This document shows, piece by piece, positions 4,283-27,592 of a stretch of DNA of 64,000 nt. Position 1 is the first letter of the stretch. The number at the start of each line of letters is the position of its first letter. The stretch is from an uncultured Gammaproteobacteria bacterium. Its GTDB lineage: Bacteria; Patescibacteriota; Patescibacteriia; Patescibacteriales; UBA12465. The position numbers and the translations under genes were made by a program. The DNA is taken from positions 4,026-68,025 of the forward strand of contig CAYSZD010000001.1 of the NCBI GenBank assembly GCA_964435515.1, given 5' to 3'. The notes beneath the pieces were generated by a model that saw only the letters and a program-made list of their open reading frames with translations, ran no database searches and was not told where the DNA came from.

Positions 4283-4308
4283 AATTATCTTTATCTAATA
4301 TAAATTAT

Positions 4309-5211: not shown

Positions 5212-5230
5212 TTTATTTATTTATTACGAT

Positions 5231-5263
5231 AAAAAGACTGCTAAAATATAGCAGTCTTTTTTT
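5231..5263 (+). terminator. Intrinsic terminator after secF
   Basis: AGACTGC/GCAGTCT stem followed by a T-run. Confidence 0.7.
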
Positions 5264-5299
5264 AAATCTTATGTTATACTGATTATAGTAATAAATAAT

Positions 5300-7615: not shown

Positions 7616-7617
7616 TT

Positions 7618-8421: not shown

Positions 8422-8517
8422 TTGTGAATATTTGAAAAATTTACTATAATATACATATATAGCTTTATTTTTTATTGAGCTTTTATTTAAGCTCTTAAGC
8501 TATTTTAATTATTTTTT

Positions 8518-9829: not shown

Positions 9830-11032
9830 ATGGCAGAGGTAAAACCAGAGATAGAAACTTTTGCAAAAATAAAGGTTGTTGGTGTGGGCGGTGGTGGCGG
9901 TAGCGCTATTAACCGTATGATTGATAATGGCATTAGAGGTGTAGAATTTGTAGCAATTAACACCGATATTCAAGCTTTACATTTTAATAAAGCAGGCGAA
10001 AAAATCCATATTGGTAAAACTGTGACTAGAGGGCTAGGAGCGGGCATGAATCCGGATTTGGGTAAAGGAGCAGCTGAGGAATCTCAGAATGAAATCAGAG
10101 AGGCTTTAAAAGGTTGTGATATGGTATTTGTAACTTGTGGATTAGGCGGTGGAACTGGTTCAGGAGCTTCGCCAATTGTAGCTCAAATTGCTCGTGATTT
10201 AGGCGCTTTAACCGTTGCTGTTGTTACTAAGCCTTTTATTTTTGAAGGTGGACAACGCAAGAACATTGCTGATCGTGCTTTTGCTGATTTAGCTGATAAA
10301 GTGGACACTATTATTACTATTTCTAATGATAAATTACTTCAAGTGATTGATAAACGAACCTCTCTTTTAGAGGCTTTTCAAATTGCAGATGATGTCTTAC
10401 GTCAAGGCGTACAAGGTATTGCAGAAATTATTACAGTTCCAGGCGTAATTAATGCTGACTTTGCTGATGTAAAGGCGGTTATGGCTAATGCTGGCTCGGC
10501 CTTAATGGGTATTGGGCAAGCTAATGGTGAAAACAAGGCTATTGAAGCAGCTAAAGCGGCAATTAACTCTAATCTGCTTGATATGTCTATTGATGGTGCC
10601 CGTGGTATCGTCTTTACCATTACTGGTGGTCCAGACTTAAGCATGAATGAGGTTAGCGATGCTGCTAAAGTTATTACTTCAGCCGCTGATGAAGATGCTA
10701 AGATTATCTTTGGTGCTGTAATTGATGAAAAGATGAAGGATCAAATTAAAATTACCGTAGTTGCTACTGGTTTTGATGGTAAGGGTAAGAGTGGATTAAA
10801 AACTGAGTCTAAGAGTTATACTCCTAATCCTTTTATAGAAAGTGAAAAAGAAAAAGAAAATTCAAGTACTTCTCCATGGGGGGACAAAAAGATAAAAACA
10901 CCAGCTATTAAAAATATTCCTTTAAAACCATTAGTTGAAAAGAAGTTAGAGAAGAAGATAGAAGATGATGATGACATTGACGAAGAGGATGATTTAAGTG
11001 TCCCGGCCTTTATTAGGAAGAAGATGATGTAG
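9830..11032 (+). CDS. ftsZ: Cell division GTPase FtsZ
   Basis: Tubulin signature [18 protein letters not shown]-terminal [14 protein letters not shown], and a conserved C-terminal peptide [12 protein letters not shown]. Confidence 0.97.
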
Positions 11033-11060
11033 TATTGATTAAAATAATTTATAAATATTA

Positions 11061-11088
11061 AAAAATAGAGTTAAATACTCTATTTTTT
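11061..11088 (+). terminator. Intrinsic terminator after ftsZ
   Basis: ATAGAGT/ACTCTAT stem with a TAAAT loop, followed by TTTTT. Confidence 0.65.
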
Positions 11089-11179
11089 GTTTCTCCTTTC
11101 TCTTTTTTGTTATGAACTTATCCACAGCTTTGAATTAATATTAAAAAAAGTATTATTTTTTTCTAAATATTGGCTGATT

Positions 11180-11208
11180 TTGACCCCTCTTTTTTATTCT
11201 GCTATAAT
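11180..11208 (+). promoter_or_regulatory. Sigma70-type promoter of the nrdR-nrdD-nrdG operon
   Basis: TTGACC (11180-11185), 17-nt spacer, TATAAT (11203-11208) preceded by TGC. Confidence 0.55.
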
Positions 11209-11216
11209 GAAGCTAA

Positions 11217-11264
11217 GCACAATATTTAGTGGTTAGTTGACAAAAACTCCACAAAATATAGCAT
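11217..11264 (+). promoter_or_regulatory. Tandem NrdR boxes
   Basis: GCACAATATTTAGTGG (11217-11232) and CCACAAAATATAGCAT (11249-11264). By hand count they match the known 16-bp NrdR palindrome (acaCwAtATaTwGtgt) at 13 and 12 positions. Starts are 32 bp apart and the boxes lie just downstream of the -10. Confidence 0.6.
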
Positions 11265-11277
11265 TAATCTAATTTTT

Positions 11278-11745
11278 ATGAAATGCCCTGTTTGCTATTA
11301 TGTAGATACTAAAGTAATAGATTCTAGGGTGGCGCCTGATGGCCTTTCTATTCGCCGCCGCCGTGAATGTTTAAAGTGTGCCTTTCGTTTTTCTACTTAT
11401 GAAGAGATTGAAATCTTAGACTTAATGATTGTAAAGCGTGATGGTAGAAGAGAATCATATAGCCGTGAAAAATTAATAAGTGGATTAAAAAAATCATTAG
11501 AAAAAAGACCAGTCACTGAGGATAGTTTCAAACAAATTATTCATGGTATTGAAAGAGATTTACAAAAATTAAGAAAAAATGAAGTTACCTCTTTGCAAAT
11601 TGGACAGATTGTAATGAAACACTTAAAGAAAACAGATCCGGTTGCTTATATTCGTTATGCTTCAGTTTATGAATCTTTTAAAGATGCTAATGAATTTAGA
11701 AGAGAGCTCAACAAGCTTATTAAAGTAAAGAAGGGGGAAAAATAA
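11278..11745 (+). CDS. nrdR: Transcriptional repressor NrdR
   Basis: MKCPVCYYVDTKVIDSR...CLKC zinc ribbon plus an ATP-cone, 155 aa. Confidence 0.93.
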   Translation: MKCPVCYYVDTKVIDSRVAPDGLSIRRRRECLKCAFRFSTYEEIEILDLMIVKRDGRRESYSREKLISGLKKSLEKRPVTEDSFKQIIHGIERDLQKLRKNEVTSLQIGQIVMKHLKKTDPVAYIRYASVYESFKDANEFRRELNKLIKVKKGEK

Positions 11746-11835
11746 ATTAACATACTAAATCGATGGCGCAATTTAAGAGTGAAAAGATAGAGGAAGTCTT
11801 TTAAATCTTTAATTTCGCGATCGTTCACTAAAACC

Positions 11836-13887
11836 ATGTCAGAAACAATTAGCCAAATCCGGAAAAGGTCCGGAGACATTCTCGATTTTAGTCCAGAAAA
11901 AATAAAGACTGCTATCTATAAAGCCGCTTTATCTGCTGGTATTGATGATGAAAAATTAGCTCAGACTTTAACTGATGGGGCGGTAAAAAAAATAAATGCT
12001 AAGTTTCATAAAAATAGTATACCAGCGGTTGAAGAAATACAGGATATAGTTGAGGAAGTTTTAATTGAAAATAGGCAAATCAAAACAGCCAAGAATTATA
12101 TTCTTTATAGAGATCAGAGAAGACAACTTCGAGAATTAAATAAGGCGACTTCAGATGAAAAGTTAATGGAAGATTATTTAGGTAGAGCTGATTGGCGTTT
12201 GAAAGAGAATAGTAATATGAGTTTTTCTGTTCAAGGTTTAAATAATTACATTGCTTCAGCTATTTCTGCTCGTTATTGGTTAAATAAAATGTATCCAGCT
12301 AATATTCGGGAAGCTCATGTAAATGGTGATTTACATATCCATGATTTAGGTCTATTAGCTCCATATTGTTGCGGTTGGGATTTAAAAGATTTGTTAATTA
12401 AAGGTTTTGGGGGTGTTTCAGAAAAGATTCAGAGTAAAGCTCCTAAGCATTTTCGTAGCGCTTTAGGTCAGGTTGTTAATTTCTTTTATACAATGCAGGG
12501 AGAAGCGGCCGGCGCACAAGCATTTGCCAACTTTGATACCTATTTAGCTCCTTTTGTTAGATACGATAAATTAACATATAAAGAAGTTAAACAGGGATTA
12601 CAGGAGTTTATGTTTAATTTGAATGTTCCCACTAGGGTTGGTTTTCAGACTCCTTTTACTAATATCACCATGGATGTTACGCCTTCTAAATTAGTTGGCG
12701 AAGAAAATATTATTATTGGTGGTGAAATTAAATCCGAAAAGTATAAAGATTTTCAAGAAGAGATGGACATGATTAACAAAGCCTTCGCAGAAGTAATGAT
12801 CGAAGGTGATGCTACTGGCAGAATGTTTGGTTTTCCTATTCCTACTTATACTATTGATAAGAATTTTGATTGGGATAGAGAGTCTTTAGAGCCAATGTGG
12901 GAGATGACTGCTAAATATGGCATTCCATATTTTTCTAACTTTGTTAATTCGGATATGGACAGAGATGATGCTCGTTCAATGTGCTGTCGTTTACGTTTAG
13001 ATAATAGAGAGCTAAGAAAAAGAGGCGGTGGTTTATTTGGCGCCAATCCTTTAACGGGAAGTTTGGGCGTAGTTACTATTAATTTACCTCGCATTGGTTA
13101 CCTTTCTAAAACTAAAGAAGAATTTTTAGAAAGAATCTATAAATTAATGGATTTAGCTAAAGAAAGTTTAGAAATTAAAAGGAAAGTAATTGAAAAATTT
13201 TCTGAAGGTGGTTTATATCCTTATTCTAAACATTATCTAGCGGATATTAAAGCTCGTTTTGGTACTTATTGGCAAAATCATTTTAATACTATTGGTATTA
13301 ATGGCATGAATGAAGCGTTACTTAATTTTATAGGTAAAGATTTAACTAGTTCAGAGGGACATGTTCTTGCACTTGAGATAATGGATGCTATGAGGGAAAA
13401 ATTAATGGATTATCAAAACGAAACAAATAATTTATATAATTTGGAAGCTACTCCTGGAGAAGGATGTACTTATAGATTTGCTAAGAAAGATTTAGAAACC
13501 TATCCAGATATGATTTTTGCTAATACAGAAGATGCTAAACAGGGAATTCCTCCATATTATACTAATTCAACACATTTACATGTTAATTTTTCAGATGATA
13601 TTTTTGCTGCCTTAGATTTACAAGATGATTTACAAATTAAGTATACTGGCGGCACTGTTTTACATGGTTATTTAGGTGAAAGATTGACCGATGGCAACGC
13701 TGCTAAAAAATTAGCTCGTAAAATTATTGAAAATTATCGTTTACCCTATTTTACCATTACCCCTACTTTTTCAATTTGTCCTAAACACGGATATTTAGCC
13801 GGTGAACATAAATATTGTCCTAAATGTGATGAAGAAATAGGTTATAATAGCGAAGAGATGCAGTCTGAGCGTTGCTCAACAAATTAA
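11836..13887 (+). CDS. nrdD: Anaerobic ribonucleoside-triphosphate reductase, large fragment lacking the glycyl-radical domain
   Basis: N-terminal ATP-cone, class III RNR motifs (SMCCRLRLD, NLEATPGEG) and a C-terminal CPKHG...CPKC zinc site. The ORF stops (TAA 13885-13887) before any RVxGY glycyl-radical motif. Confidence 0.9.
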   Translation: MSETISQIRKRSGDILDFSPEKIKTAIYKAALSAGIDDEKLAQTLTDGAVKKINAKFHKNSIPAVEEIQDIVEEVLIENRQIKTAKNYILYRDQRRQLRELNKATSDEKLMEDYLGRADWRLKENSNMSFSVQGLNNYIASAISARYWLNKMYPANIREAHVNGDLHIHDLGLLAPYCCGWDLKDLLIKGFGGVSEKIQSKAPKHFRSALGQVVNFFYTMQGEAAGAQAFANFDTYLAPFVRYDKLTYKEVKQGLQEFMFNLNVPTRVGFQTPFTNITMDVTPSKLVGEENIIIGGEIKSEKYKDFQEEMDMINKAFAEVMIEGDATGRMFGFPIPTYTIDKNFDWDRESLEPMWEMTAKYGIPYFSNFVNSDMDRDDARSMCCRLRLDNRELRKRGGGLFGANPLTGSLGVVTINLPRIGYLSKTKEEFLERIYKLMDLAKESLEIKRKVIEKFSEGGLYPYSKHYLADIKARFGTYWQNHFNTIGINGMNEALLNFIGKDLTSSEGHVLALEIMDAMREKLMDYQNETNNLYNLEATPGEGCTYRFAKKDLETYPDMIFANTEDAKQGIPPYYTNSTHLHVNFSDDIFAALDLQDDLQIKYTGGTVLHGYLGERLTDGNAAKKLARKIIENYRLPYFTITPTFSICPKHGYLAGEHKYCPKCDEEIGYNSEEMQSERCSTN

Positions 13888-13941
13888 CTAATTTATTTAT
13901 TTATTTATGTTTCTTATGGTTTTTAGATAAATTGTCAATCT

Positions 13942-14109
13942 ATGCCAAAAGAATCAAGACAAAATATGAGCCCTATTACTACAAAGCGTCAAGAATGCAC
14001 CGTCTATAGTCGAGTTGTTGGTTGGTATACGCCAGTAAAAAACTATAATCCTGGTAAAACATCTGAATATAAAGATCGTAAAACCTTTAAGGTTGATTGC
14101 ACTAAATAA
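13942..14109 (+). CDS. nrdD: Stand-alone glycyl-radical domain of NrdD (55 aa, absent from the ORF track)
   Basis: My translation is MPKESRQNMSPITTKRQECTVYSRVVGWYTPVKNYNPGKTSEYKDRKTFKVDCTK. VYSRVVGWYTPVKNYNPGK matches the canonical NrdD C-terminal glycyl-radical loop. It is in the same reading frame as 11836..13887. Confidence 0.75.
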   Translation: MPKESRQNMSPITTKRQECTVYSRVVGWYTPVKNYNPGKTSEYKDRKTFKVDCTK

Positions 14110-14133
14110 TTAATTATTTGAGGGTCGTAGGGA

Positions 14134-14165
14134 AAAAGCCGTTCGTCCGACTCCCGGCGGCTTTT
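14134..14165 (+). other. GC-rich hairpin between the nrdD tail ORF and nrdG (terminator/attenuator-like)
   Basis: AAAAGCCG (14134-14141) pairs with CGGCTTTT (14158-14165). A second helix, GGGTCG (14122-14127) with CGACTCC (14148-14154), interleaves with it. Only a short T-run follows. Confidence 0.3.
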
Positions 14166-14179
14166 CATTCCTTATACCT

Positions 14180-14911
14180 ATGATTATTGGTGGTTTAGAA
14201 AAATTAACATTATTAGATTTTCCAGATAATTTGGCAGCTATTATCTTTACTCAGAATTGTAATTTTCGTTGCCATTATTGCTATAATCCCATGCTTGTCT
14301 GGCCACGCACAGAAATGCTGTCGCCGGATGGGAAGAATATAAAAGAAGATCATCCTTTAATAAAAGAGGAAGATCTTTTTTTGTTTTTAAAAGAAAGAAA
14401 AGGAAAAATAGATGGAGTAGTTATTAGCGGTGGTGAACCTACTCTTCATGCTGACTTGCCTCAATTTATTAAAAAAATTAAAGACTTAGGTTATTTAGTT
14501 AAGCTAGATACAAATGGTACTAATCCTTTAATGTTAGCTAATTTAATAGAAGCTAATTTAATTGATTATATTGCTATGGATATAAAAGCTTCACTTGAAA
14601 AATATGAAGAAACAGTTGCTGTAAAAGTAAATTTAGATAATTTGCAAAAAAGTGTTAAAATGATATTGTCTGGTCCTGTTGCCTATGAATTTAGGAGTAC
14701 CCTGGTACCAAAATTACATGGAGAGGAGGATATTAAAAGAATGGGGAAATTAATAAAAGGAGCTAGGCTATGGTATTTGCAAAAATTTAAGCCTGATGCT
14801 GATTTAATTAATCCTGAGTTTAAAAAACTTCCCACTTTTACGGATCAAGAGTTAAAAGATTTAGCGCTAATTGGGGCTAAATTTGTTCAGCGTTGTGAGG
14901 CTAGAATTTAA
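14180..14911 (+). CDS. nrdG: Anaerobic ribonucleotide reductase activating enzyme (radical SAM)
   Basis: CNFRCHYCYN CxxxCxxC radical-SAM cluster and a GGEPT motif. Located downstream of nrdD. Confidence 0.9.
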   Translation: MIIGGLEKLTLLDFPDNLAAIIFTQNCNFRCHYCYNPMLVWPRTEMLSPDGKNIKEDHPLIKEEDLFLFLKERKGKIDGVVISGGEPTLHADLPQFIKKIKDLGYLVKLDTNGTNPLMLANLIEANLIDYIAMDIKASLEKYEETVAVKVNLDNLQKSVKMILSGPVAYEFRSTLVPKLHGEEDIKRMGKLIKGARLWYLQKFKPDADLINPEFKKLPTFTDQELKDLALIGAKFVQRCEARI

Positions 14912-14921
14912 TTATAATAAT

Positions 14922-15224
14922 ATGAGCGAAATGCAAATTGTTGATCAAAGTTTAAATGATGAAAAAATACCTGATACTATTATTGAAGCAAAAGAAGGAG
15001 ATAGTGATTTAAATCAATTAATTAAAGAAAATTTGGCTCTTACTAGAGAAATTGCCATTATGGTTAGACATATTAATAGATATGTAGCCTGGCAAAGAAT
15101 TTTTGCTTGGGTTAAAGTGCTTTTTATTTTAATCCCCGTGATTGTTGGAGCTATATATTTACCACCATTACTGAATGACGCCTATAAACAATTATTATCA
15201 GCTTTAGGATCTAATATTCAATAG
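14922..15224 (+). CDS. Hypothetical small membrane protein
   Basis: The ATG at 14922 (MSEMQIV...) avoids the 41-nt overlap with nrdG that the tracked start at 14871 implies. One C-terminal TM helix (WVKVLFILIPVIVGAIYLPPLL). Confidence 0.5.
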   Translation: MSEMQIVDQSLNDEKIPDTIIEAKEGDSDLNQLIKENLALTREIAIMVRHINRYVAWQRIFAWVKVLFILIPVIVGAIYLPPLLNDAYKQLLSALGSNIQ

Positions 15225-15230
15225 TTATTT

Positions 15231-17069
15231 ATGAGTCAAGACATTGCTGTTTTTGCGCAAACAACTTTTCGCAATCAATTTAAAAAATTTGGTATTCGTA
15301 CAGATGATCGTCGTCGGCACATGTATTTGATTGGGAAAACAGGTATGGGTAAATCTACTATTCAAGAAAATATGATAGTAGGTGATATTAGAGCTGGATA
15401 TGGATTGGCGGTTGTTGATCCTCATGGAGATTTAGCAGAAAAAATAATTGAATATATTCCTGCTGATAGGATAAAAGACGTTGTATACTTTAATCCGGCT
15501 GATATGGATTATCCTATTGCTTTTAATGTTTTAGAACAAGTAGAACCTCATTTAAGACATTTAGTTGCGTCTGGGTTATTGGGAGTATTTCAAAAACTTT
15601 GGGCTGATTCCTGGGGACCTCGTTTAGAGTATATTTTACGTAATGCTATTTTAGCTATTTTAGATTTTCCAGGATCAACTATATTAGGGGTTGTGCGCAT
15701 GTTGTCTGATAAAGCCTATCGTAAAAGAGTGGTTGCTAATATTAAAGATCCGGTAGTAAAAGCTTTTTGGGAAAAAGAATTTGCTTCGTATGCTGATAAA
15801 TTTGCTTCAGAGGCGGTATCTCCAATTCAAAATAAAGTTGGTCAATTTCTTTCTAGTTCTTTGATGCGTAATATTATAGGTCAAGTGAAATCAACTATTG
15901 ATATTAGAAAAATAATGGATGAAGGAAAGATTTTGATTATGAATTTAAGTAAAGGAAGAATCGGTGAAGATAATTCGGCACTTTTAGGGGCAATGATGAT
16001 TACTAAAATTCAATTAGCAGCCATGAGTAGAGTTGATGTGCCTGAGAATGAACGTAAAGATTTTTTTCTATATATTGATGAATTTCAAAATTTCTCTACT
16101 GATAGCTTTGCCAATATTCTTTCTGAAGCTCGTAAATATCGTTTAAGTTTAATTTTAGCTCATCAATATATTGAACAACTTAGTGAAAAAGTAAAGCCAG
16201 CAGTATTTGGTAATGTGGGGACAATGGTTTCCTTTAGAGTTGGAGCTACTGATGCCGAGGAGCTAGCAAAAGAATTTGCTCCAGTCTTTACTGAAGAAGA
16301 TTTAGTAAATCTACCAAAATATGAAATGTATTTAAAGCTGATGATTGACGGTATTGCTTCTGCTCCATTTTCCGCTAAAGGTTTACCACCTTTAACAGAT
16401 GAAGAAAAAACACATAACCTTGATAAAGTTATTGCTTATTCAAGAGAAAAATATGCTACTTCACGAGTGCTTGTAGAGGAGAGAATTTTACGTTGGCATG
16501 AGGCTCAAGATGAACAACCTGTTAAAGCTCAAGTAGGAGCTAAAGCTAGTTATTCGCCCGATAAAACATTTACTAATAATCAAAAAAAAGAAGAAGTAAA
16601 AGAGATTATAAAAAATGATAAGTTTAGTTCGGGTCCGCTTAGACAAGACAAAGCAATATCTGCAGATAAAACAAATCATAATTCAAAATTACAACAAACA
16701 AAGCCAGTAAATAATGATATTGAAAAAGATTCTGCCTATACGGCTACTTGTGCTCGTTGTAATAAATTAACAAAGACGGTATTTATTCCTGATGGTGTAC
16801 GTCCAGTTTTTTGTAAAGAGTGTCTTGCTATTAAAAGGCAAGAGAAACAAAAAGAGGCAGAGGAGAGAAAGTTAAATAAGGAGAAAGAATTGCGACAAAT
16901 AGATATACAGAAAAAAACAGGGCCAAGTTTGTCTTTGTCGGATTTAAATAAAGTTAAGCCAGTAGATTTTAAAGGACGACCACAGAAAATCTCTTCATCG
17001 GATCATGTATCGCAGTCAGGAGACATGGAAGAAGACGAAATAATAGATTTTTCTAGAAAGGCTGAATAA
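15231..17069 (+). CDS. Soluble VirD4/TraD-like (T4SS coupling-protein-type) P-loop ATPase with C-terminal CxxC-x17-CxxC zinc ribbon
   Basis: Walker A GKTGMGKST and Walker B FFLYIDEFQNF, with LILAHQY. No N-terminal TM helix. The K/E-rich tail contains CARC-x17-CKEC (nt 16749-16823). Confidence 0.8.
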   Translation: MSQDIAVFAQTTFRNQFKKFGIRTDDRRRHMYLIGKTGMGKSTIQENMIVGDIRAGYGLAVVDPHGDLAEKIIEYIPADRIKDVVYFNPADMDYPIAFNVLEQVEPHLRHLVASGLLGVFQKLWADSWGPRLEYILRNAILAILDFPGSTILGVVRMLSDKAYRKRVVANIKDPVVKAFWEKEFASYADKFASEAVSPIQNKVGQFLSSSLMRNIIGQVKSTIDIRKIMDEGKILIMNLSKGRIGEDNSALLGAMMITKIQLAAMSRVDVPENERKDFFLYIDEFQNFSTDSFANILSEARKYRLSLILAHQYIEQLSEKVKPAVFGNVGTMVSFRVGATDAEELAKEFAPVFTEEDLVNLPKYEMYLKLMIDGIASAPFSAKGLPPLTDEEKTHNLDKVIAYSREKYATSRVLVEERILRWHEAQDEQPVKAQVGAKASYSPDKTFTNNQKKEEVKEIIKNDKFSSGPLRQDKAISADKTNHNSKLQQTKPVNNDIEKDSAYTATCARCNKLTKTVFIPDGVRPVFCKECLAIKRQEKQKEAEERKLNKEKELRQIDIQKKTGPSLSLSDLNKVKPVDFKGRPQKISSSDHVSQSGDMEEDEIIDFSRKAE

Positions 17070-17073
17070 TTTT

Positions 17074-17649
17074 ATGTATTTATTTTTTGATACCGAAACA
17101 ACCGGTTTACCTAAAAATTATAAAGCGCTAGCTTCTGATAGTGATAATTGGCCTCGTTTAGTGCAGCTATCATGGGCTTGGTTTGATGAAAATGGTAATG
17201 CTTGGGATCGTTATGATTATATTGTTAAGCCGCTAGAGTTTATTATCCCTGAAGAATCTACTAAAATTCATCGCATCAGTCATGAACAAGCCGTTAAAGA
17301 GGGCGTAGATTTAAAAATGGTTTTAGAAGAATTTTCCGAACATGTTAGTCGGGCTAAATCAATAGTGGGCCATAATATTGATTTTGATGATAAAATTATA
17401 GCTGCTGAATTGTATCGTTTACAAATGCCAAATATTATGGAATCCGCAAATAAGATTTGCACTATGAAATCTAGCGCTAATATTTGTCGCATCAGTAATG
17501 GTCGAGGTTCTTATAAATGGCCAAACTTATCAGAGTTACATCGCTATTTATTTAATAAAGATTTTGATGAAGCTCATAACGCAATGATTGATGTGCTGGC
17601 TTGTGCGCGTTGTTTTTATGAGATCAGAAAAAGGGGTATAAATATATAA
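17074..17649 (+). CDS. DEDDh 3'-5' exonuclease (DnaQ/epsilon-like)
   Basis: Exo I FFDTETTG, Exo II VGHNIDFDDKI, Exo III HNAMIDVLACARCF. The start is 4 nt after the upstream stop. Confidence 0.85.
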   Translation: MYLFFDTETTGLPKNYKALASDSDNWPRLVQLSWAWFDENGNAWDRYDYIVKPLEFIIPEESTKIHRISHEQAVKEGVDLKMVLEEFSEHVSRAKSIVGHNIDFDDKIIAAELYRLQMPNIMESANKICTMKSSANICRISNGRGSYKWPNLSELHRYLFNKDFDEAHNAMIDVLACARCFYEIRKRGINI

Positions 17650-17650
17650 T

Positions 17651-19228
17651 ATGGATTATTTAAAAATTGGTAAAGCTACTCATTTAAGCGGTAAAAATCG
17701 AATTTTATATCGATTTTTTGAAATATTACCAGGAGCATTATCCTTTATTACTCTTTTTGGTTTACTTATTTTATCTTATTTTAAACCAGTTTGGGTAGCT
17801 TTTTTTATTATAGCTTTTGATGTTTATTGGTTACTCATTGTTATTTATCTAGCAGTTTATCTTATCGCCGCTTATCGAGAACTAAAACGTAATAGTAAAA
17901 TTAATTGGCGAGCTAAATGTGAAGAGTTAGATATTGCTAAATATGATAAGAAGGTTGCAGCTGACGCCTTGGTTAGAAGTGGTAAGAGTTGGAAAGATTT
18001 ATGGCAACTTATTATATTTCCTAATTATAATGAAGATGAAGAAATTATAGCCAGTGCTTTGGAGGCTTTATTATTAGACGGTTTTCCGCCTGAGCAAATG
18101 ATTGTTATCTTAGCGATGGAAGAAAGGGCTGGTGAGGCTGCTCATATTAAAGCGGCGGCAATGAAAAAAAGATTTAATAATCGTTTTGCACATTTAATTA
18201 CGACTTTTCATCCTGATGGCATAGAGGGTGAGATAAAAGGCAAGGGTGCTAATCAGTCATGGGCTATAAAAGAAGCAAAAAGAGACTTATTGGATAAAGG
18301 AAATTTTAATTTTGATAATATTTTAGTGAGTGTATTTGATATTGATACCATGGTTCGTCCTGGTTATTTTTTTGCTTTATCATATCGTTTTTTAACAGTA
18401 ACTTCTCCCTATAGAGCTAGCTATCAGCCAATACCGGTTTATCATAATAATCTTTGGCAAGCACCTTTTTTTTCTAGAGTAGCGGCCTCTTCCAACACTT
18501 TTTGGCAAATGATGATGCAAATTAGAGAAGAACAATTAGTGACTTATTCTTCTCATTCTATGACCTTAAAAGCCTTGATAGATATTGGCTTTTGGTCTAC
18601 TAATATGGTGAGCGAAGACTCTCGTATTTTTTGGCAATGTCTTTTACATTATCGTGGTAATTATCGAGTAGAGCCTTTATATTTTCCTGTTTCAATGGAT
18701 ATTACTTTTGATCGTAATTTTTGGCAAACTGCCAAGAGTTTATATAAACAACAAAGAAGATGGGCATGGGGCGCTGAAAATGTTCCTTATTTAATGTTTA
18801 ATACAGTTAAGTTATGGAAAGAGATTGATAGAAAAAAATTAGTTGGTCATATCGCTGTACAGCTTTATGGTTTTCATTCATGGGCTACTAATGCTTTAAT
18901 TATTGCTGTAATTGGCTGGATGCCAATGCTTTTGGGTGGAGATCGTTTTAATTCAACTGTTTTGTCTGGTAATTTGCCTGCTATTACGCAAACACTCATG
19001 AATATTGCTATGATTGGCTTAGTGTTGTCGGCTGTTATTTCTACCTTATTACTTCCTAAGAGGCCTAAAAATTATTCTTTCTTTAAAAGCGTAAGAATGT
19101 TGCTAGAATGGATTTTTGTTCCTTTTACTATTATCTTTTTTGGATCCATTCCTTGTTTAGATGCACAGTTAAGATTATTGAGAGGAAAATATATGGGTTT
19201 TTGGGTAACACCTAAATCTCGCTCATAA
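17651..19228 (+). CDS. Processive family-2 glycosyltransferase (cellulose/chitin-synthase-like), membrane-embedded
   Basis: DID (VFDIDTMV), ED (SEDSRIFW) and the QxxRW motif (QQRRWAWG), with flanking TM helices. Confidence 0.75.
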   Translation: MDYLKIGKATHLSGKNRILYRFFEILPGALSFITLFGLLILSYFKPVWVAFFIIAFDVYWLLIVIYLAVYLIAAYRELKRNSKINWRAKCEELDIAKYDKKVAADALVRSGKSWKDLWQLIIFPNYNEDEEIIASALEALLLDGFPPEQMIVILAMEERAGEAAHIKAAAMKKRFNNRFAHLITTFHPDGIEGEIKGKGANQSWAIKEAKRDLLDKGNFNFDNILVSVFDIDTMVRPGYFFALSYRFLTVTSPYRASYQPIPVYHNNLWQAPFFSRVAASSNTFWQMMMQIREEQLVTYSSHSMTLKALIDIGFWSTNMVSEDSRIFWQCLLHYRGNYRVEPLYFPVSMDITFDRNFWQTAKSLYKQQRRWAWGAENVPYLMFNTVKLWKEIDRKKLVGHIAVQLYGFHSWATNALIIAVIGWMPMLLGGDRFNSTVLSGNLPAITQTLMNIAMIGLVLSAVISTLLLPKRPKNYSFFKSVRMLLEWIFVPFTIIFFGSIPCLDAQLRLLRGKYMGFWVTPKSRS

Positions 19229-19283
19229 TTATTGCTGTCTATTTTTTAATTATTTTGCTATTATAGAAAAATAGAATATTTTT

Positions 19284-19942: not shown

Positions 19943-21496
19943 ATGTTTAGGAAAATAAATTACATTATATTTAGTAGCTTGTTATTTCTCGTTTTTTCTT
20001 TCTATTCGGTTCAAGCTATAGCCAGCGATAGTCGTCAAATTGTTTCCTTGTCTTTTGAGAAAGCTCAAATAGTGCAACAGGATTTATTTAAATTAGAATT
20101 ACCAGTTAAAAGTCTAAAGGCAAATACGGAGATTGTGGTGGAAAATTTAGGTTCAGTGTTTGATTGGCCTTGGAATTATTCCCCCTTAAGTAATGTCTAT
20201 CAATTTGACTTTAGTGATAGAGGGATAAATTATAATCAGTCTGAAGCTTTGCAGATATCTATTAGTTATTCTGAGGGCAATGATAATTATAAACAGATTT
20301 TTTTCTATGATAAAGGACAAGCTAAATGGCGTCCATTGCCATCAGTAGATGATCCTGTCAACAAGAAAGTTAGTGCTATTATTCATTTACCTTATGCACG
20401 AGTAGCTCTTTTAGAGAGTGATGAAGTGATGATGGTTGGCCAAGCTAGTTGGTATCGTTACAAAAATGGCTTATATGCCGCTTCACCTGATTTTGCTAAG
20501 GGCACTATTTTAAAGGTAACAAATTTAAACAATGGTAAATTTGTTGACGTTACCATTAATGATTACGGACCAGATAGATCTTTGCATCCAGAAAGAGTAA
20601 TAGATTTAGATGCGCTTGCTTTTAATAAAATTGCTTCTACCAGAGATGGTATTGTTAAAGTTAAATTAGATGTTGTTAAATTTGCTAGTCAGGAAGATAA
20701 AAATAAATTAGAAGCAGGTACAGTGGTGCCTGATATAGTGTCTAAATCGGCAACGGTTATGTCGGCTTTAGATGGTAGTATTTTATATGCTAAAAATGCT
20801 GATTTAGTAGCGCCTTTAGCTAGTTTAACTAAGCTATTAGCAATGAAAGTTTTTTTAGATTTAAAACCAGATTTTAATAAAGTAGTTAGTTATTCCGATC
20901 AAGATGCTGAATATAATTATGAACATGTTAATCCTTGGGAGTCGGCTCGCTTAAGAGTCACTAATGGCGAGACTTTAACAATAGAAAATTTACTGTATGC
21001 TACTTTAGTTGGCTCAGCTAATAATACTACTGAGACCTTAGTGCGTGTTAGTGGTATTTCTAGGAATGAGTTTATTAAAAAAATGAATGATCAAGCCAAA
21101 GCTTGGGGTGCTGTAAACAGTAAATTTATTGAGCCTACTGGTTTAGCTCCAGCAAATGTGAGCTCTCCTTTAGATTATGCTATAATAATTAGAGAGTTAT
21201 TTAAAGATGAATTGTTAAAAAAAATAAGCACGACTGCTAAGTATTCCTTTACAAGTATTAATAAAGATAAGACATATTATCTAACTAATACTAATTCTTT
21301 ATTAAAAACGGGTCAGTATAATATCGCCCTTTCTAAAACCGGTTATTTGGATGAAGCTGGATATTGTTTAATGACTCAGGTAGATTCAGAAAAAGGGCCT
21401 TTAATTATTGTTAACTTTAATTCCCCTACTCGGGCTGGTAGTTTTCAAGATAATGCCAATTTAATTAAATATGGACTTAAGCAGTTAGGAAAATAA
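19943..21496 (+). CDS. Secreted fusion: unknown N-domain + RlpA-like DPBB domain + serine DD-carboxypeptidase (S11/PBP5-like)
   Basis: Signal peptide; DPBB stretch GQASWYRYKNG...ILKVTNLNNGKFVDVTINDYGP; SxxK (ASLTK), SxN (GSANN) and KTG (SKTGY) motifs. Confidence 0.8.
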   Translation: MFRKINYIIFSSLLFLVFSFYSVQAIASDSRQIVSLSFEKAQIVQQDLFKLELPVKSLKANTEIVVENLGSVFDWPWNYSPLSNVYQFDFSDRGINYNQSEALQISISYSEGNDNYKQIFFYDKGQAKWRPLPSVDDPVNKKVSAIIHLPYARVALLESDEVMMVGQASWYRYKNGLYAASPDFAKGTILKVTNLNNGKFVDVTINDYGPDRSLHPERVIDLDALAFNKIASTRDGIVKVKLDVVKFASQEDKNKLEAGTVVPDIVSKSATVMSALDGSILYAKNADLVAPLASLTKLLAMKVFLDLKPDFNKVVSYSDQDAEYNYEHVNPWESARLRVTNGETLTIENLLYATLVGSANNTTETLVRVSGISRNEFIKKMNDQAKAWGAVNSKFIEPTGLAPANVSSPLDYAIIIRELFKDELLKKISTTAKYSFTSINKDKTYYLTNTNSLLKTGQYNIALSKTGYLDEAGYCLMTQVDSEKGPLIIVNFNSPTRAGSFQDNANLIKYGLKQLGK

Positions 21497-23182: not shown

Positions 23183-23253
23183 TCGGGGATCGTCTAATGG
23201 TAGGACAGTGGCCTTTGAAGCCATCAATCATGGTTCGAATCCATGTCCCCGAG
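23183..23253 (+). tRNA. tRNA-Gln (anticodon TTG)
   Basis: TCGGGGATCGTCTAATGGTAGGACAGTGGCCTTTGAAGCCATCAATCATGGTTCGAATCCATGTCCCCGAG. It has U1-A72 (typical of bacterial tRNA-Gln), anticodon stem GTGGC/GCCAT, loop CTTTGAA and T-arm CATGG-TTCGAAT-CCATG. Confidence 0.92.
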
Positions 23254-23416
23254 CAAAACACAAAATCAGGCTTTTAAGGCCTATTTTTGTTTTAATATTA
23301 GAAACATTTTAAGTTCTAAAGTGGTTCGAACTTTTTTGGGATATTTGGGATAATTTATAGTAATCTATAGAAATACCTTGATTTTATTGGTCAATATCGG
23401 TTCGAATCCATGTCCT
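23219..23416 (+). repeat. Repeat unit A: authentic tRNA-Gln 3' part + hairpin/T-run + 128-nt core
   Basis: AGCCAT...CCCCGAGCA (23219-23255), hairpin 23268-23288, core GTTTTAATATTAGA...GGTTCGAATCCATGTCCT (23289-23416). Confidence 0.85.
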
Positions 23417-23494
23417 ATTTTTAAACTTAAAATATGTTATAATGAATTTATAAAGTTAATAATATAAATAAAAAATAATTTTAAGAATTAAAAT

Positions 23495-24445
23495 ATGGCA
23501 GCACAAATTTTGATTTTAATAGTCTCATTGATAACTTTGGGATTTGCAGCAAATTACCTTGTTAACTCTAGTATAAAAATTGCTAGAAAATGGAAAGTTT
23601 CTGAAATGTTTATTGGCTTAACTATTGTTGCTATTGGAACATCTGCCCCGGAATTAGCAGTTTCCGCCTTCGCCGCCTTAAAGGGCCAAGGGGATTTGTC
23701 TGTTGGGAATGTTATTGGCTCTAATATTTTTAATTTAGGATTCATCTTGGGTCTAGTTACTATTATTGCGCCACAGGTAATTCCTAAAAAAATGGTTAAA
23801 CGAGATGGGGTGGTTCTTTTTATCTCCACAATCATGATTCTTTTTTTCATGTGGGATCTTAAAATTGTTTTTTGGGAAGGACTAATCTTATTAGCTAGTT
23901 TAGTTTCATATTTAACCCTTCTTTGGGTTAAGAAAGACGTTCAAACGGAAGAAGATGATGGAGAAGTTGCGACACGGAAAGACTATTTAATCTTTATAAT
24001 TAGTTTAGCTATTTTGGTAAAATCATCCGATTTCACAGTTTCGTCTGCTGTTTTTATTGCTGAGTACTTCAAAATTTCTGCTTGGGCTATTGGGGCAACT
24101 ATCGTTGCTGCTGGGACAAGTTTGCCCGAAATGGCCACCTCAATAATTGCCGCCTTAAAAAAGAAATTTGGTTTATCTGTCGGCAATGTGATTGGTTCCG
24201 ATATTTTTAACACGTTTGGCATAATAGGAATAAGTAGCGTTATCGCCCCAATTTCACTAATGTCAAAGGGGCAAATCTTTGGCATAGCTGATTCTGTTTT
24301 TTCTGTTATCATGTTAATAGCCACCATTCTTCTTCTATTAATATTTATGAGAAGCGGCTGGAAGATTAGTCGTAGGGAAGGAATTATCATCTTGATAATT
24401 GCTTTGATGAGAATGGCTTTTGAGGTTTATGTTGGAAAAACGTAA
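23495..24445 (+). CDS. CaCA-family cation/Ca2+ exchanger (YrbG-like)
   Basis: 316 aa, about 10 TM helices. Two alpha-repeats, GTSAPELAVS and GTSLPEMATS, each followed by GNVIGS(N/D)IFN. Confidence 0.88.
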   Translation: MAAQILILIVSLITLGFAANYLVNSSIKIARKWKVSEMFIGLTIVAIGTSAPELAVSAFAALKGQGDLSVGNVIGSNIFNLGFILGLVTIIAPQVIPKKMVKRDGVVLFISTIMILFFMWDLKIVFWEGLILLASLVSYLTLLWVKKDVQTEEDDGEVATRKDYLIFIISLAILVKSSDFTVSSAVFIAEYFKISAWAIGATIVAAGTSLPEMATSIIAALKKKFGLSVGNVIGSDIFNTFGIIGISSVIAPISLMSKGQIFGIADSVFSVIMLIATILLLLIFMRSGWKISRREGIIILIIALMRMAFEVYVGKT

Positions 24446-24570
24446 AATATAATATTTATAAATAATCGTACGAAATGTTGATGAGTTAGCCCGTATTTAT
24501 TAGATTTTTCCTTGTAACTGAGTATTACTCTTTAGAGATAGGATCGTACCTATAATTATCATCTAATTTT

Positions 24571-24737
24571 AGCCACACTATTTCGAACTTCGTCCACGAC
24601 CCCGAGCACCTTTATAGAAACGAGCGGAAACGCCCGTTTTTATTATGTAAAATCGGTTCGAAAATAACATCAAATTATTACTATTTTAGCAAACACCTTG
24701 ATTTTATTAGCTCAAAAAAGTTCGAATCCTTGTCCCT
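24571..24737 (+). repeat. Repeat unit B (most degenerate): tRNA-Gln 3'-half remnant + hairpin/T-run + shortened core
   Basis: AGCCACACTATTTCGAACTTCGTCCACGACCCCGAGCA (24571-24608), hairpin 24620-24641, then a core remnant ending CCTTGATTTTATTAGCTCAAAAAAGTTCGAATCCTTGTCCCT. Confidence 0.75.
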
Positions 24738-24775: not shown

Positions 24776-25285
24776 ATGAAATTTATAAAAACTATACAAT
24801 TTAAAGATCTAAGAATCGAAGATACTGATAAGTTTAAAATTCGCCGGGCAGCCAGGGCTGTTGTTTTTGATAATAATAAAAATATTGGGATTTTATATGT
24901 CAGCAAATATAATTATCATAAACTACCTGGAGGCGGTCTTGAAGGCGACGAAGCCATCGAAGGGGCGCTTAAAAGAGAATGCTTAGAAGAGATTGGGTGT
25001 AGCACAGAAATATTTGGCGAGCTTGGGGAAATTATTGAATACAGAGATAAATGGTCTTTAAAACAGCATTCATATTGCTATTTAGCTAATGTTGTCGGCG
25101 AAAAAGGGAGTCCTAATTTTACTGAAAAGGAAATAGATAATGGTTTTGAAATAAAATGGGTTTCGCTACAGGAAGCTATTAAATTACTAGAAAATGATAA
25201 GCCGGAAGATTATGAGGGAGGATTTATACAAATAAGAGATAGCAGTTTTCTTAAAGAAGCCAAGAACCTTTTAGAAACTGCATAG
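24776..25285 (+). CDS. NUDIX hydrolase
   Basis: Nudix box GGGLEGDEAIEGALKRECLEEIGC. Confidence 0.85.
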   Translation: MKFIKTIQFKDLRIEDTDKFKIRRAARAVVFDNNKNIGILYVSKYNYHKLPGGGLEGDEAIEGALKRECLEEIGCSTEIFGELGEIIEYRDKWSLKQHSYCYLANVVGEKGSPNFTEKEIDNGFEIKWVSLQEAIKLLENDKPEDYEGGFIQIRDSSFLKEAKNLLETA

Positions 25286-25294
25286 TCAACTAAT

Positions 25295-25573
25295 ATGCCA
25301 AAAAAAATAATAAAAAAGATTCTTCCTGAATATTTTCAAGATATTGTTGACGGAAAAAAGAAGTACGAGTTTCGTCTTAATGATTTTAATATTAAGGTTG
25401 GAGATACTCTAGTTTTAGAAGAGTGGACATCAGCAGATCCTAAAAATAGGCAAGCCACTGGCAGAAAATTAGAAAGAAAAGTTACGTATTTAAGAAAGTT
25501 TAAATTACAAGATTTGTGGTTTAGTGAAGAAGATATTAAAGAGAAGGGGTTTCAAATAATTTCATTCGAATGA
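25295..25573 (+). CDS. ASCH/PUA-fold small protein (DUF3850-like)
   Basis: ILPEYFQDIVDGKKKYEFRLNDFNIKVGDTLVLEEW matches the DUF3850/ASCH pattern (xPxYFxxIxxGxKxFExRxND..xxVGDxLxLxE). Ends at a TGA stop. Confidence 0.65.
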   Translation: MPKKIIKKILPEYFQDIVDGKKKYEFRLNDFNIKVGDTLVLEEWTSADPKNRQATGRKLERKVTYLRKFKLQDLWFSEEDIKEKGFQIISFE

Positions 25574-25625
25574 AATTATTTGGAAGAAAATTAAATTAAT
25601 CGGTATCTGAATTTTCCTTATTATT

Positions 25626-25825
25626 AGCCATCCACGTCCGAAAACCGTCTCTCCAAGCGAGCAAAACAACAAAATTGAGCCGAAAGGCTCTTTTTTTGTT
25701 TTAATATTAGATACATTTTAAGTTCCAAAGCGGTTCGAATATTTTTGGGATATTTTAGATAATCTACAGTAATTTATATAAAAACCTTGATTTCATTGGT
25801 CAATATTGGTTCGAATCCACGTCCT
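25626..25825 (+). repeat. Repeat unit C: tRNA-Gln 3'-half remnant + GNRA hairpin/T-run + 128-nt core
   Basis: AGCCATCCACGTCCGAAAACCGTCTCTCCAAGCGAGCA (25626-25663), GAGCC-GAAA-GGCTC + T7 (25677-25697), core 25698-25825. Confidence 0.85.
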
Positions 25826-25872: not shown

Positions 25873-26799
25873 ATGAAACCAACACTTATCACATGTTATG
25901 TAAATCCAGACTTAGATGGGGTGGCTGGAGCCTTTGCCTATGGTGAATTTTTACAGAAGACGGGCAGAGAATCTATTGTTGGTATTATCGGAGAGCCGCA
26001 CGACGAAGCTAAATATATTTTAGATCGTTATAATATTCCATATCCCCAGAAAATAATTAATGCTGATAATTTTGATGAGGTCGTCCTGGTTGACGCCAGC
26101 GATTTAAATGGTCTTGAGGGAAATATTGCGCCGGAAAAAGTAGTTGAGATTATTGATCACAGAAAAATTAATGAAGCTGATAAATTTCCTAATGCTAGGG
26201 TGCAAATTGAATTAGTCGGCTCAGCTGCTACTTTAATAGCAGAAAAGTTTATTGAAAATAATATTAATATTTCCAAAGAGTCAGCAATTTTACTTTGTGG
26301 AGCCATTATATCCAATACTCTTAATTTTAAGGGTGGAGTTACAACAGACAGAGATAAAAAGGCCGTAGAGTATCTTGATAAAATAGCACTCTTGCCAGAT
26401 AATTTCTGGAAAGATCTTTTTATGGCCAAGTCAGATTTATCAGGAAGCAAGTTGAGTGAAAGAATTGAAGGCGATTTTGCGTGGTTTACTTTTGCTGATA
26501 AAAAAGTTGGCATTGCTCAAATTGAAATTGTCGGAGCTGAGATGCTTATCAAAGAAAGAATTGAAGAAATTATTAAGGTACTTGAGAAAATAAGGCAAGA
26601 TATGGGACTAGATTATATTTTTCAAAATACTATCGAGTTAGAGTTAGAATGTAATTATTTTATCAGTCCAGATCTAAAAACACAGAAACTATTGGAAAAA
26701 GTTTTAAATATTAAATTTAATGAGGCTGTTGCCAAAAGGCCAAATTTAATCATGCGCAAGCAAATCGTTCCACTAATTAAAGAGGAACTAGAACATTAA
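25873..26799 (+). CDS. DHH/DHHA2 phosphoesterase (family II inorganic pyrophosphatase-like)
   Basis: N-terminal NPDLDG metal motif, VDASD, IIDHRK (DHH-position motif), and a C-terminal DHHA2-like MRKQIVP motif. At 308 aa it is the size of PpaC-type enzymes. Confidence 0.75.
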   Translation: MKPTLITCYVNPDLDGVAGAFAYGEFLQKTGRESIVGIIGEPHDEAKYILDRYNIPYPQKIINADNFDEVVLVDASDLNGLEGNIAPEKVVEIIDHRKINEADKFPNARVQIELVGSAATLIAEKFIENNINISKESAILLCGAIISNTLNFKGGVTTDRDKKAVEYLDKIALLPDNFWKDLFMAKSDLSGSKLSERIEGDFAWFTFADKKVGIAQIEIVGAEMLIKERIEEIIKVLEKIRQDMGLDYIFQNTIELELECNYFISPDLKTQKLLEKVLNIKFNEAVAKRPNLIMRKQIVPLIKEELEH

Positions 26800-26821
26800 A
26801 AAAGCTATTATCTTAATTACT

Positions 26822-27364
26822 ATGGAAGAATATTTAGATATTGTTGATGAAAATAATAATATTACGGGAGAAAAGAAATTGAGATCTCTAATTCACAAAG
26901 ACGGCTCTTGGCACAGAACGGTTCATATTTATTATTTTATGAAGAAGAATAATGAATATTATTTTCTCGTTCATCTCAGGTCTAAAGCAAAAGATTTGTG
27001 CCCAAACATGTGGGACACACGTTTTGGTGGCCATTTAAAATCAGGTCAGGATGTAAAACAAACACTTATATCTGAGTTAGAAGAAGAAATTGGATTAAGG
27101 GCTGATATTAATAAATTTATTCCCGGGCCAATTTTAAAAAGAGATGATTTGCCAAACAATGAATTTACTTATGTTTATTATTATCCAGGATTAGAGGATA
27201 TTAGTAGTTTAAAATTTGCTGATAATGAGGTTCAAGAAGTGAAGTGGTTGCCAGCGCAAGATATAGTAGAGGGAATTAAAAATAATTCTAATGATTGGGC
27301 CCCTAGTTTAGAGGGTTTTGAAGGCATTTATAAGTATTTTATTGATTTTCAAGATTCTAAGTAG
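26822..27364 (+). CDS. NUDIX hydrolase
   Basis: Nudix box GGHLKSGQDVKQTLISELEEEIGL, and an upstream WHRTVHIYYF strand typical of the fold. Confidence 0.8.
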   Translation: MEEYLDIVDENNNITGEKKLRSLIHKDGSWHRTVHIYYFMKKNNEYYFLVHLRSKAKDLCPNMWDTRFGGHLKSGQDVKQTLISELEEEIGLRADINKFIPGPILKRDDLPNNEFTYVYYYPGLEDISSLKFADNEVQEVKWLPAQDIVEGIKNNSNDWAPSLEGFEGIYKYFIDFQDSK

Positions 27365-27393
27365 GATTATACTTCTAGTTTTTCTTAAATATT

Positions 27394-27592
27394 AGTCACA
27401 TTAGTTCGAACTTCGTCCACGACCCCGAGCAAAATGCGAAAGCAGGTTTTAAAAGCCTGTTTTTGTTTTAATATTAGACACATTTTAAGTTCCAAAGCGG
27501 TTCGAACATTTTTGGGATATTTTAGATAATCTATAGTAATTTGTGGAAAAGCCTTTATTTTATTGGCTCATATTGGTTCGAACTTGCGTCAT
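27394..27592 (+). repeat. Repeat unit D: tRNA-Gln 3'-half remnant + hairpin/T-run + 128-nt core (right end diverged)
   Basis: AGTCACATTAGTTCGAACTTCGTCCACGACCCCGAGCA (27394-27431; 3 differences from the unit B copy), hairpin 27443-27464, core 27465-27592. Confidence 0.85.

Follow-up and report, generated by a model that had tools for sequence, protein, structure and literature searches.

A conserved core repeat in tRNA-Gln cassette arrays of Patescibacteria, apparently a DNA-level module linked to a large serine recombinase

The 64-kb genome segment analysed here (the window; 33% GC) carries a tRNA-Gln(UUG) gene with four tandem units stacked behind it. Three of these units contain a 128-nt non-coding repeat, the core, of which a fourth, reduced copy lies in the remaining unit. 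The order within a unit is constant: the GAGCA-ended 3' end of the tRNA or a 64-70-nt tail is followed by an intrinsic terminator, the core, a cargo-specific promoter and the cargo genes. Comparison with related loci shows that the core, a conserved module of non-coding DNA, stands at the front of mobile cassettes stacked behind tRNA-Gln and is tied to a large serine recombinase (LSR). The main crossover of this recombinase would lie some 35 nt before the core, at the GAGCA with which the tRNA or a cassette tail ends, and outside the coordinates that the initial annotation had given for the element. The tRNA gene and the four cores are placed as follows.

23183..23254, plus strand: tRNA-Gln(UUG), found by ARAGORN and Rfam
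23289..23416, plus strand: core A, with left block TTTTGTTTTAATATTAGA..AAGTTC.AAAG.GGTTCGAAC, a variable middle, and right block CCTTGATTTTATTGG..GGTTCGAATCC(ATGTCC)
24640..24735 (approximate limits), plus strand: reduced core B, which keeps both GGTTCGAA motifs and CCTTGATTTTATT and has lost about 21 nt of the left block
25698..25825, plus strand: core C
27465..27592, plus strand: core D, the terminal core

No gaps are needed to align cores A, C and D. The initial annotation had counted 15 mismatches between A and C, 17 between C and D and only 3 within the first 75 positions of the latter pair, and its alignment and counts were all reproduced; A and D differ at 23 positions. The whole repeat is longer than the core, about 185 nt (23255-23439 and two further copies), and GGTTCGAATCCATGTCC is found 4 times against an expectation of 0.02. 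It was confirmed that the right end of the core lacks the terminal CCGAGCA, and the motif TTCGAA-N18-GATAAT is present in all three cores at the spacing described (23325-23354 in A, 25734-25763 in C and 27501-27530 in D). The proposed likeness of the right end to tRNA-Gln from the anticodon loop onward held for one part only. The match is significant for the last 25 nt of the core (TCAAT..GGTTCGAATCCATGTCC; 0 of 1000 shuffles), which copy the T-arm of tRNA-Gln with its T-loop, whereas the anticodon-loop part, and the remainder of the core compared with tRNA positions 1-44, score no better than chance (129 of 1000 shuffles). A tRNA-Gln pseudogene extending over the whole core was rejected because only the T-arm copy is significant. 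The variable middle of core A holds a 10-nt tandem duplication, the right end of core D (GGTTCGAACTTGCGTCA) is unlike that of the family and similar to a type-1 tail, and the core B variant is also found in another locus (L013) with other cargo.

Species-representative genomes and metagenomes were each scanned once with core-derived patterns, which gave 44 loci; L001, L024 and so on are labels of individual loci, and P0003, P0006 and P0008 denote individual LSRs. By nhmmer, cores occur in 15 genome loci from 14 metagenome-assembled genomes (MAGs), mostly labelled Patescibacteria, Falkowbacteria or Paceibacterota, and in metagenome loci as well. The 41 distinct copies come in forms of 118 and 128 nt. 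The difference is a 10-nt tandem duplication of GGGATAWTTT, present in the 15 copies of the longer form, so no conclusion on helical phasing was drawn from the 10-nt step. Wherever the start of the array is visible, it is a tRNA-Gln gene (UUG or CUG; 17 of 17 loci), and one MAG has both an 'empty' UUG locus, consisting of the tRNA, a terminator and one core, and a filled CUG locus (L015, L019). A phage or plasmid sequence was rejected on empty searches: blastn gave zero matches among 50,697 phage and 72,556 plasmid records, the core pattern had 0 matches in IMG/VR, and relatives of the LSR were not found in IMG/VR either.

The distance from GAGCA to the first TTCGAA is 69 nt in 32 of the 41 copies, and from there to the second TTCGAA it is 66 or 76 nt. 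Conserved columns are clustered, with a longest run of 17 against 6.4 in permutations (P about 2e-4). The patterns of the genome scan placed no constraint on the GTTTTAATATTAG block, which is nevertheless nearly invariant among the loci of that scan. Core identity also exceeds the identity of four-fold sites in the linked cargo in five of five pairs:

L013_766 and L053_12330: core 89%, cargo four-fold sites 81%
L016_3687 and L033_119: core 90%, cargo four-fold sites 66%
Window core C and L017_157: core 86%, cargo four-fold sites 81%
L020_5523 and L020_7191: core 87%, cargo four-fold sites 62%
L024_5684 and window core A: core 100%, cargo four-fold sites 93%

The link to a recombinase comes from the sequence upstream of the core, where the following features were found.

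tRNA-Gln 3' end, TTCGAA-11 nt-GAGCA ending 23255: probable attB-type left half-site and crossover region
23268..23282, plus strand: intrinsic terminator past the putative crossover site (terminator scan), carrying the conserved A-rich right half-site motif (AAAACACAAAATCAGGC)
24539..24608, minus strand: tail 1, a relic of an LSR gene 3' end that closes cassette 1; the reverse strand reads VLGVVDEVRNSVAKIR followed by two stops, and there is a P-type half-site, TTCGAA-16 nt-GAGCA
24622..24639, plus strand: terminator of unit B
25600..25663, minus strand: tail 2 (type 2), a relic of a different LSR C-terminus; the reverse strand reads LLAWRDGFRTWMAN..
25677..25690, plus strand: terminator of unit C (GAGCC GAAA GGCTC)
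27362..27431, minus strand: tail 3, an LSR 3'-end relic with a P-type half-site; the reverse strand reads LLGVVDEVRTNVTNI, a stop, EKLEV and a second stop
27436..27466, plus strand: terminator of unit D

Downstream of core D there is no tail. The terminator scan finds a terminator after every GAGCA, including those of core-less units. Two different partial tRNA copies had been assigned to each unit, and the first of these turned out to be the relic 3' end of a serine recombinase gene. L050 has, on the opposite strand, a 513-aa open reading frame that ends in ...SSMLGVVDEVRTSVAKIKEELEV; in reverse complement, its final codons give the type-1 tail. The product of this frame and a second LSR, in L001, have Resolvase, Recombinase and Zn_ribbon_recom domains (Pfam). 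The tails match the last ~22 codons of the LSR gene in reverse complement. The reverse-strand translation LLGVVDEVR(T/N)SVAKI.. is obtained from nearly every tail in all loci, and the similarity ends at GAGCA. Tail 2 is comparable to the C-terminus of P0008 (..SSVLAWRDCFRT). Only about 9 nt (CCCCGAGCA) are shared between tail and tRNA, the rest of the 'tRNA-like' tail being recombinase coding sequence. The LSR homologues (1467 at E<1e-30) have a common body, ...NKKIANISFKEPYKQLSEIxNKSDFSS, beyond which they diverge into three classes of C-terminus. Some end in LGDRDSNPD.., which is the tRNA-Gln 3' end in reverse complement, others in RRGRDSNPG.. and the like, which correspond in the same way to other tRNAs, and a third class is of the tail type. 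In L055 and L058 the LSR gene adjoins tRNA-Gln and reads into it, L058 having the same FtsE-FtsX-tRNA-Gln synteny as the window, and in L060 a relative of the LSR lies at tRNA-Ser(GCT). An LSR gene with Resolvase, Recombinase and Zn-ribbon domains is tied to this type of array in L001, L050, L055 and L058.

The overlap of the tails with the LSR gene and the reading of the LSR into the tRNA suggest that the phage-type attachment site (attP) is contained in the 3'-terminal part of the LSR gene, that the host site (attB) is the tRNA 3' end, and that crossover occurs at or near GAGCA. In serine integrases the motif of the zinc-ribbon domain (ZD) is shifted by 5 bp between attB and attP half-sites (PMC3783163). 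The same shift is found here upstream of the core: TTCGAA is separated from GAGCA by 11 nt in tRNA-Gln and by 16 nt in tails 1 and 3, so that the outer (ZD) motif is 5 bp nearer the crossover in the attB-type half-site. The tail would thus have attP-type and the tRNA 3' end attB-type half-site geometry, and it is this spacing that places the crossover ~35 nt upstream of the core. The right half-sites at the tRNA and at the tails are alike, both resemble the LSR's own P' arm, and attL/attR logic fits the array poorly.

Recombinases in the scanned proteins were LSRs and one IS481-type transposase. Pfam detected no tyrosine-recombinase domain in ten proteins (array cargo and immediate downstream genes), nor in seven further scanned proteins of L001, L050 and L053; the scan of the flanks was not exhaustive. 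In the syntenic array of L053, a DDE transposase of IS481/IS3 type with rve domains has been inserted between the leading cassettes (oriented, 10856-11806). Autonomous LSR elements were seen in L050 (oriented, 1566-8650), L058 (flipped, 10001-17560) and L060 (flipped, 9958-19260); their common module is the LSR gene with a 314-aa rolling-circle Rep (REP_ORF2-G2P) that is related to inovirus gpII and pSAM2 RepSA, and L050 and L058 have a conserved GC-rich hairpin near rep. L001 (1-6540) has a HinfI-type restriction-modification pair, an HTH_17 protein and SpoVG instead of the Rep module. These LSR elements look like small integrative plasmids or replicons of Patescibacteria resembling phages with single-stranded DNA (ssDNA). 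L057 (2289-3326), a short contig, has an LSR with a native tail-type C-terminus (P0006) beside a reverse-transcriptase (RVT_1) gene, and TraG-, TraC- and PrgI-like genes of type IV secretion lie near the LSR-hosting tRNA-Ser locus of L060 (17186-21527 in locus coordinates). The core was also considered as a replication origin for the Rep of these elements, but no core-like motif occurs inside those of L001, L050, L058 or L060, and the hairpin shared by the Rep-proximal regions of L050 and L058 is different from the core. A decayed LSR gene upstream of attP was likewise rejected: the alignment looked colinear but scored no better than shuffles.

The genes and promoter-like element that follow the cores in the window are listed here.

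23435..23443, plus strand: extended -10 element TGTTATAAT, cargo-specific, just 3' of core A (read from the sequence)
23495..24445, plus strand: cargo 1, Na+/Ca2+ exchanger (CaCA) gene (Pfam Na_Ca_ex, E 9e-61)
24776..25573, plus strand: cargo 2, NUDIX hydrolase (24776-25285) and DUF3850/ASCH protein (25295-25573)
25873..27364, plus strand: cargo 3, DHH/DHHA2 phosphoesterase (25873-26799) and NUDIX hydrolase (26822-27364)
Unit 4: cargo 4, a 798-aa protein with no assigned function

The promoter-like sequence after the core differs from cargo to cargo. The CaCA gene has a 62-nt internal direct repeat (23672-23733 and 24149-24210, 74% identical), consistent with two Na_Ca_ex stretches found by Pfam in the protein. 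A NUDIX hydrolase occurs in two different cassettes of the window (24776-25285 and 26822-27364), and DUF3850/ASCH and DHH phosphoesterase cargo are paired differently in other genomes, L017 having DHH followed by a 92-aa gene.

The cassettes are mobile. Exactly the same CaCA protein is encoded on 13 contigs, next to varying neighbours, and its cassette with core A is 97-100% identical behind three distinct upstream partners. L001 and the window are identical from the first base of core A across the CaCA gene to CCCCGAGCA, with terminators and neighbouring cassettes on either side that are unlike those of the window. In L024 the terminator, core and CaCA cargo are 100, 100 and 97% identical to the window, although the tail that precedes them is unrelated. 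L019 has the window's DHH unit (terminator, core C and cargo) at 100% identity, while the identical units L017_157 and L032_629 have tRNA-Gln upstream in one case and a type-3 tail in the other. As in accretion of the staphylococcal cassette chromosome (SCC) type, units are bounded by GAGCA-ended tails, stack at one site, tRNA-Gln, and recur in several contexts. Matches between near-identical units end at GAGCA (twice), at the terminator/core boundary (twice) and inside the core (once, L007), and two independent pairs of near-identical units diverge exactly after GGTTCGAATCC. The left core motif GTTCGAACTT resembles the tails and the right core motif GGTTCGAATCC resembles the tRNA. In one core (L053, oriented, 13857-13995) the sequence runs past GGTTCGAATCC as GACCCCGGGAGCA, a full 3' end from another tRNA-like sequence, the one that the L001 and P0003 LSRs read through (..LLPGSDSNRR); this hybrid marks a junction at the T-loop.

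In view of the above, several explanations of the core can be considered. The one that we tentatively put first, as the most likely, is an accessory or secondary recombination arm that is also a homology block and acts at the DNA level. An LSR supplied in trans would join and release recombinase-less cassettes at GAGCA, and the core, sitting 35-170 nt to the right of the crossover, would be the 5' boundary arm of these cassettes. It would carry two isolated outer half-site motifs, GTTCGAA(C/T)(T/C), of which the left one is P-like and the right one B-like, the latter extended to a 25-nt tRNA half-site copy that does not include the crossover. As an accessory or secondary attachment arm and homology block, the core could serve in joining, exchanging and bounding cassettes. 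Among the earlier readings the conserved att arm comes nearest to this: the core does adjoin the recombination site and has a junction at its right edge, but the crossover that it was supposed to hold lies outside it.

Several observations weigh against a recombination arm. No LSR gene is present in the 64-kb window, so that action in trans is something we infer. The left-block invariance is partly ascertainment because the scan patterns lay in that block. The core is optional: at the syntenic tRNA-Gln of L058 the array has type-3 tails but lacks cores, and of 37 type-1 tails about 12 precede a terminator alone, in some cases with a promoter inside the hairpin. The scattered breakpoints would suit general homologous recombination equally well. 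The core, which starts ~35 nt from GAGCA and has its TTCGAA motifs at +69 and +135/145, is beyond the ~25 bp reach of an att site, and LSR att sites are normally 40-50 bp long and need no accessory DNA (PMC3783163).

Two other kinds of sequence were observed at comparable positions. A second arm family (oriented coordinates: L016 ~4531, L018 ~7178, L019 ~2099, L034 ~1527) consists of GAGCA followed directly by TTGACA-17 nt-TATACT/TATGCT inside a hairpin with a T-run, so that 40 nt accommodate both a near-consensus promoter and, overlapping with it, a terminator. L058 (reverse complement, ~17625-17795, 19130-19260 and 20130-20290) has three GC-rich elements of ~170 nt in a genome of ~33% GC. 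They lie between cassette terminators and the next unit, start with GGGATTCGAAC.., share ..GCGAGCGAGATATGAGGAGGAGCGGAAGCGACGACGAATAATCGAGCGACG.. and end in ..AATCCCTGTCCCCGAGCA, where the 3' end of tRNA-Gln is present a second time. These elements have no Rfam match and could be structured RNA or a small mobile insert.

A more far-reaching explanation, which we consider doubtful, is that Patescibacteria possess an integron-like cassette system based on an LSR, with the core as a new accessory site controlling capture, direction or exchange. Mini-cassettes with an attP-like end derived from the 3' terminus of the recombinase gene itself would be captured and shuffled at tRNA-Gln, and the core would provide extra copies of the recombinase outer motif at fixed spacing. 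Integrons use the tyrosine recombinase IntI, attI and attC sites and a common promoter, Pc. Like them, the present loci have a one-directional array of one- or two-gene units at a fixed chromosomal site, a conserved recombination-linked element between cassettes, and identical cassettes in different orders across genomes. However, the recombinase is of the serine type, an attC-like hairpin is absent, and each cassette has its own promoter and terminator instead of a common Pc. Identity with integrons was rejected, since no IntI was found in the scanned proteins and no attC-like fold in the core. Extra motif copies at fixed distances on one side of a serine-recombinase crossover also recall the res sites of Tn3 and gamma-delta resolvases, in which accessory sites II and III lie beside crossover site I. 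This is an analogy only, the core motifs being single and not dyad pairs, and to our knowledge no large serine recombinase uses accessory sites.

That the core is regulatory DNA seems unlikely. In this case the TTCGAA near-palindromes GGTTCGAAC and GGTTCGAATCC would be operators for a dimeric regulator of the host or the element, which would control the downstream cargo promoter or insulate it from the tRNA or the preceding cassette. In a variant, a minus-strand promoter, TGGATT-18-TAAAAT, would produce an antisense RNA of ~115 nt that ends at a bidirectional terminator. The core is always located between a terminator and a cargo-specific promoter, and its conservation is clustered and at the level of sequence; for the variant, the hairpins upstream of A and C also score as minus-strand terminators, and minus-strand TAAAAT with TGGATT at 18 nt is found in 16 of 39 copies. 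However, the cargo -10 element is not at a constant distance from the end of the core (26 nt in A and 34 nt in C), and in L015 and L029 the terminal cores precede convergent genes, which leaves them nothing to regulate. None of the promoter columns is conserved in over half of the copies, the minus strand has no folding signal, and the 25-nt tRNA identity points to descent from a tRNA and not to a dedicated operator.

We also regard it as improbable that the core is a functionless relic, either a decayed 3' flank of tRNA-Gln or a pseudo-tRNA left by old integrations that hitch-hikes with the cassettes. Its apparent conservation would then be due to recent spread of one lineage of cassette arms and to homogenising recombination. 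Horizontal spread of cassettes at up to 100% identity, mosaic breakpoints that indicate frequent recombination among cores, and the optional presence of the core are in agreement with this. The first ~20 nt (TTTTTGTTTTA(A)TATTAGA) may merely prolong the T-tract of the terminator, and the same stretch follows the terminator at the tRNA-Ser attR site of L060. On the other hand, the cores of the window are 12-18% divergent, so homogenisation within the genome is weak, and unrelated cassettes in many species still have cores of 80-90% identity in which the invariant blocks are kept. The excess of core identity over cargo four-fold sites in all five pairs (e.g. 90% versus 66%) likewise speaks against a relic.

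A transcribed tRNA-like RNA, serving as an RNase P/Z processing signal or as a small RNA, is highly improbable: the right end does copy 25 nt of the tRNA-Gln T-arm with its T-loop, but a terminator lies immediately 5' of the core with no conserved promoter in between, and these two RNA readings of the initial annotation gained no support from Rfam, covariation, T-stem pairing or folding. Rfam detects nothing in 23289-23416 at its gathering thresholds or at E<=10, not even a partial tRNA; its matches are the true tRNA-Gln alone, so that the earlier remark that no known RNA family is recognised stands and membership of such a family is rejected. In the RNAalifold consensus of 39 copies the only pairing is the trivial one between the two TTCGAA palindromes, and there are 0 compensatory pairs. 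The outer three pairs of the T-stem are unpaired in 30, 25 and 12 of the 39 copies, the 5' strand being constant and the 3' strand variable, the covariation score is matched by 167 of 500 shuffles, and folding z-scores on both strands range from -1.23 to +1.21, which is nothing unusual. In the T-arm copy the sequence is maintained and the fold is not. The AAGTTC...GAACTT hairpin that had been described is not borne out either, its second pair being broken in 25 of 38 sequences with compensatory changes in none. An attC-like folded hairpin was not found: neither strand as ssDNA folds significantly, and paired arms are absent from the alignment. A conserved RNA or ssDNA structure was rejected on the RNAalifold result, the pair counts and the z-scores. 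Of the observations that had been named as speaking against a functional element, the lack of covariation was indeed made, whereas conservation was found to exceed neutral decay.

The internal sigma-70 promoter that had been read from TTCGAA-N18-GATAAT was rejected as well, being neither called nor conserved over the copies. The promoter scan reports zero plus-strand promoters in any core, and its single call within a core is on the minus strand of core D (TCCACA-17-TAAAAT) and not conserved elsewhere. GATAAT sits in the 10-nt tandem duplication that is missing from 26 of 41 copies, promoter-like matches in the region are at chance level (23 found, 20.2 +/- 4.6 expected), and no promoter-like column is present in more than 19 of 39 copies. 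Neither a folded RNA nor a promoter is supported by any test.

Considered as a whole, the system may be described as an SCC-like or integron-like cassette stack in Patescibacteria, with an LSR whose attP would lie in its own gene and which we infer to act in trans. In staphylococci, SCC and SCCmec elements insert, by means of Ccr LSRs, at the 3' end of one conserved housekeeping gene, rlmH; they stack in tandem, are bounded by short attachment repeats, and many lack a recombinase and are thought to be moved in trans. The tandem stack at the 3' end of one gene, the attachment-repeat bounds, the recombinase-less units and the LSR are features in common with the present arrays. The target here is tRNA-Gln and not rlmH, however, and the hosts are Patescibacteria. 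Unlike in SCC, attP appears to lie inside the LSR gene 3' end, so that the last ~22 codons survive as a relic at the end of each cassette. With one or two genes, the units measure 1-2.5 kb, and many have the 118/128-nt core, for which we know of no counterpart in SCC. Tycheposons and other tRNA-linked island arrays use tyrosine-type recombinases and have repeats of the tRNA 3' part. They are similar in that tandem cargo units lie beside a tRNA gene with short tRNA-derived repeats in between and many lack an integrase; the present system differs in having an LSR and in sharing only the ~9 nt of CCCCGAGCA with the tRNA. The att sites of the LI/A118 integrase (PMC3783163) are comparable in that GTTCGAA.. 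is 5 bp nearer the crossover in the host site (11 versus 16 nt), and Resolvase, Recombinase and Zn-ribbon domains are found in both. The core is beyond the canonical 40-50 bp range, and any role for it would be an addition to the known scheme. A survey of inoviruses mentions CPR (candidate phyla radiation) hosts and serine recombinases in general terms only (PMC6813254), and a description of an LSR cassette system at tRNA-Gln was not found in the searchable literature.

CPR bacteria or Patescibacteria have tiny genomes, and little is known of how they gain genes. The arrays point to tRNA-Gln as a recurrent hotspot for cassettes of one or two genes in at least 14 species-level genomes, between which cassettes move with as much as 100% identity. 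In annotation, the 'partial tRNA' repeats that close the cassettes are to be read as recombinase coding relics and not as tRNA fragments. If an LSR moves the cassettes in trans, the system would be a serine-recombinase counterpart of integrons and SCC islands in an uncultured phylum. Should the core prove to serve recombination as an accessory site, the accepted view that sites of 40-50 bp are all that large serine integrases need would have to be extended. Large serine integrases are widely used for genome engineering, and an accessory role of the core, if true, would therefore also be of practical relevance.

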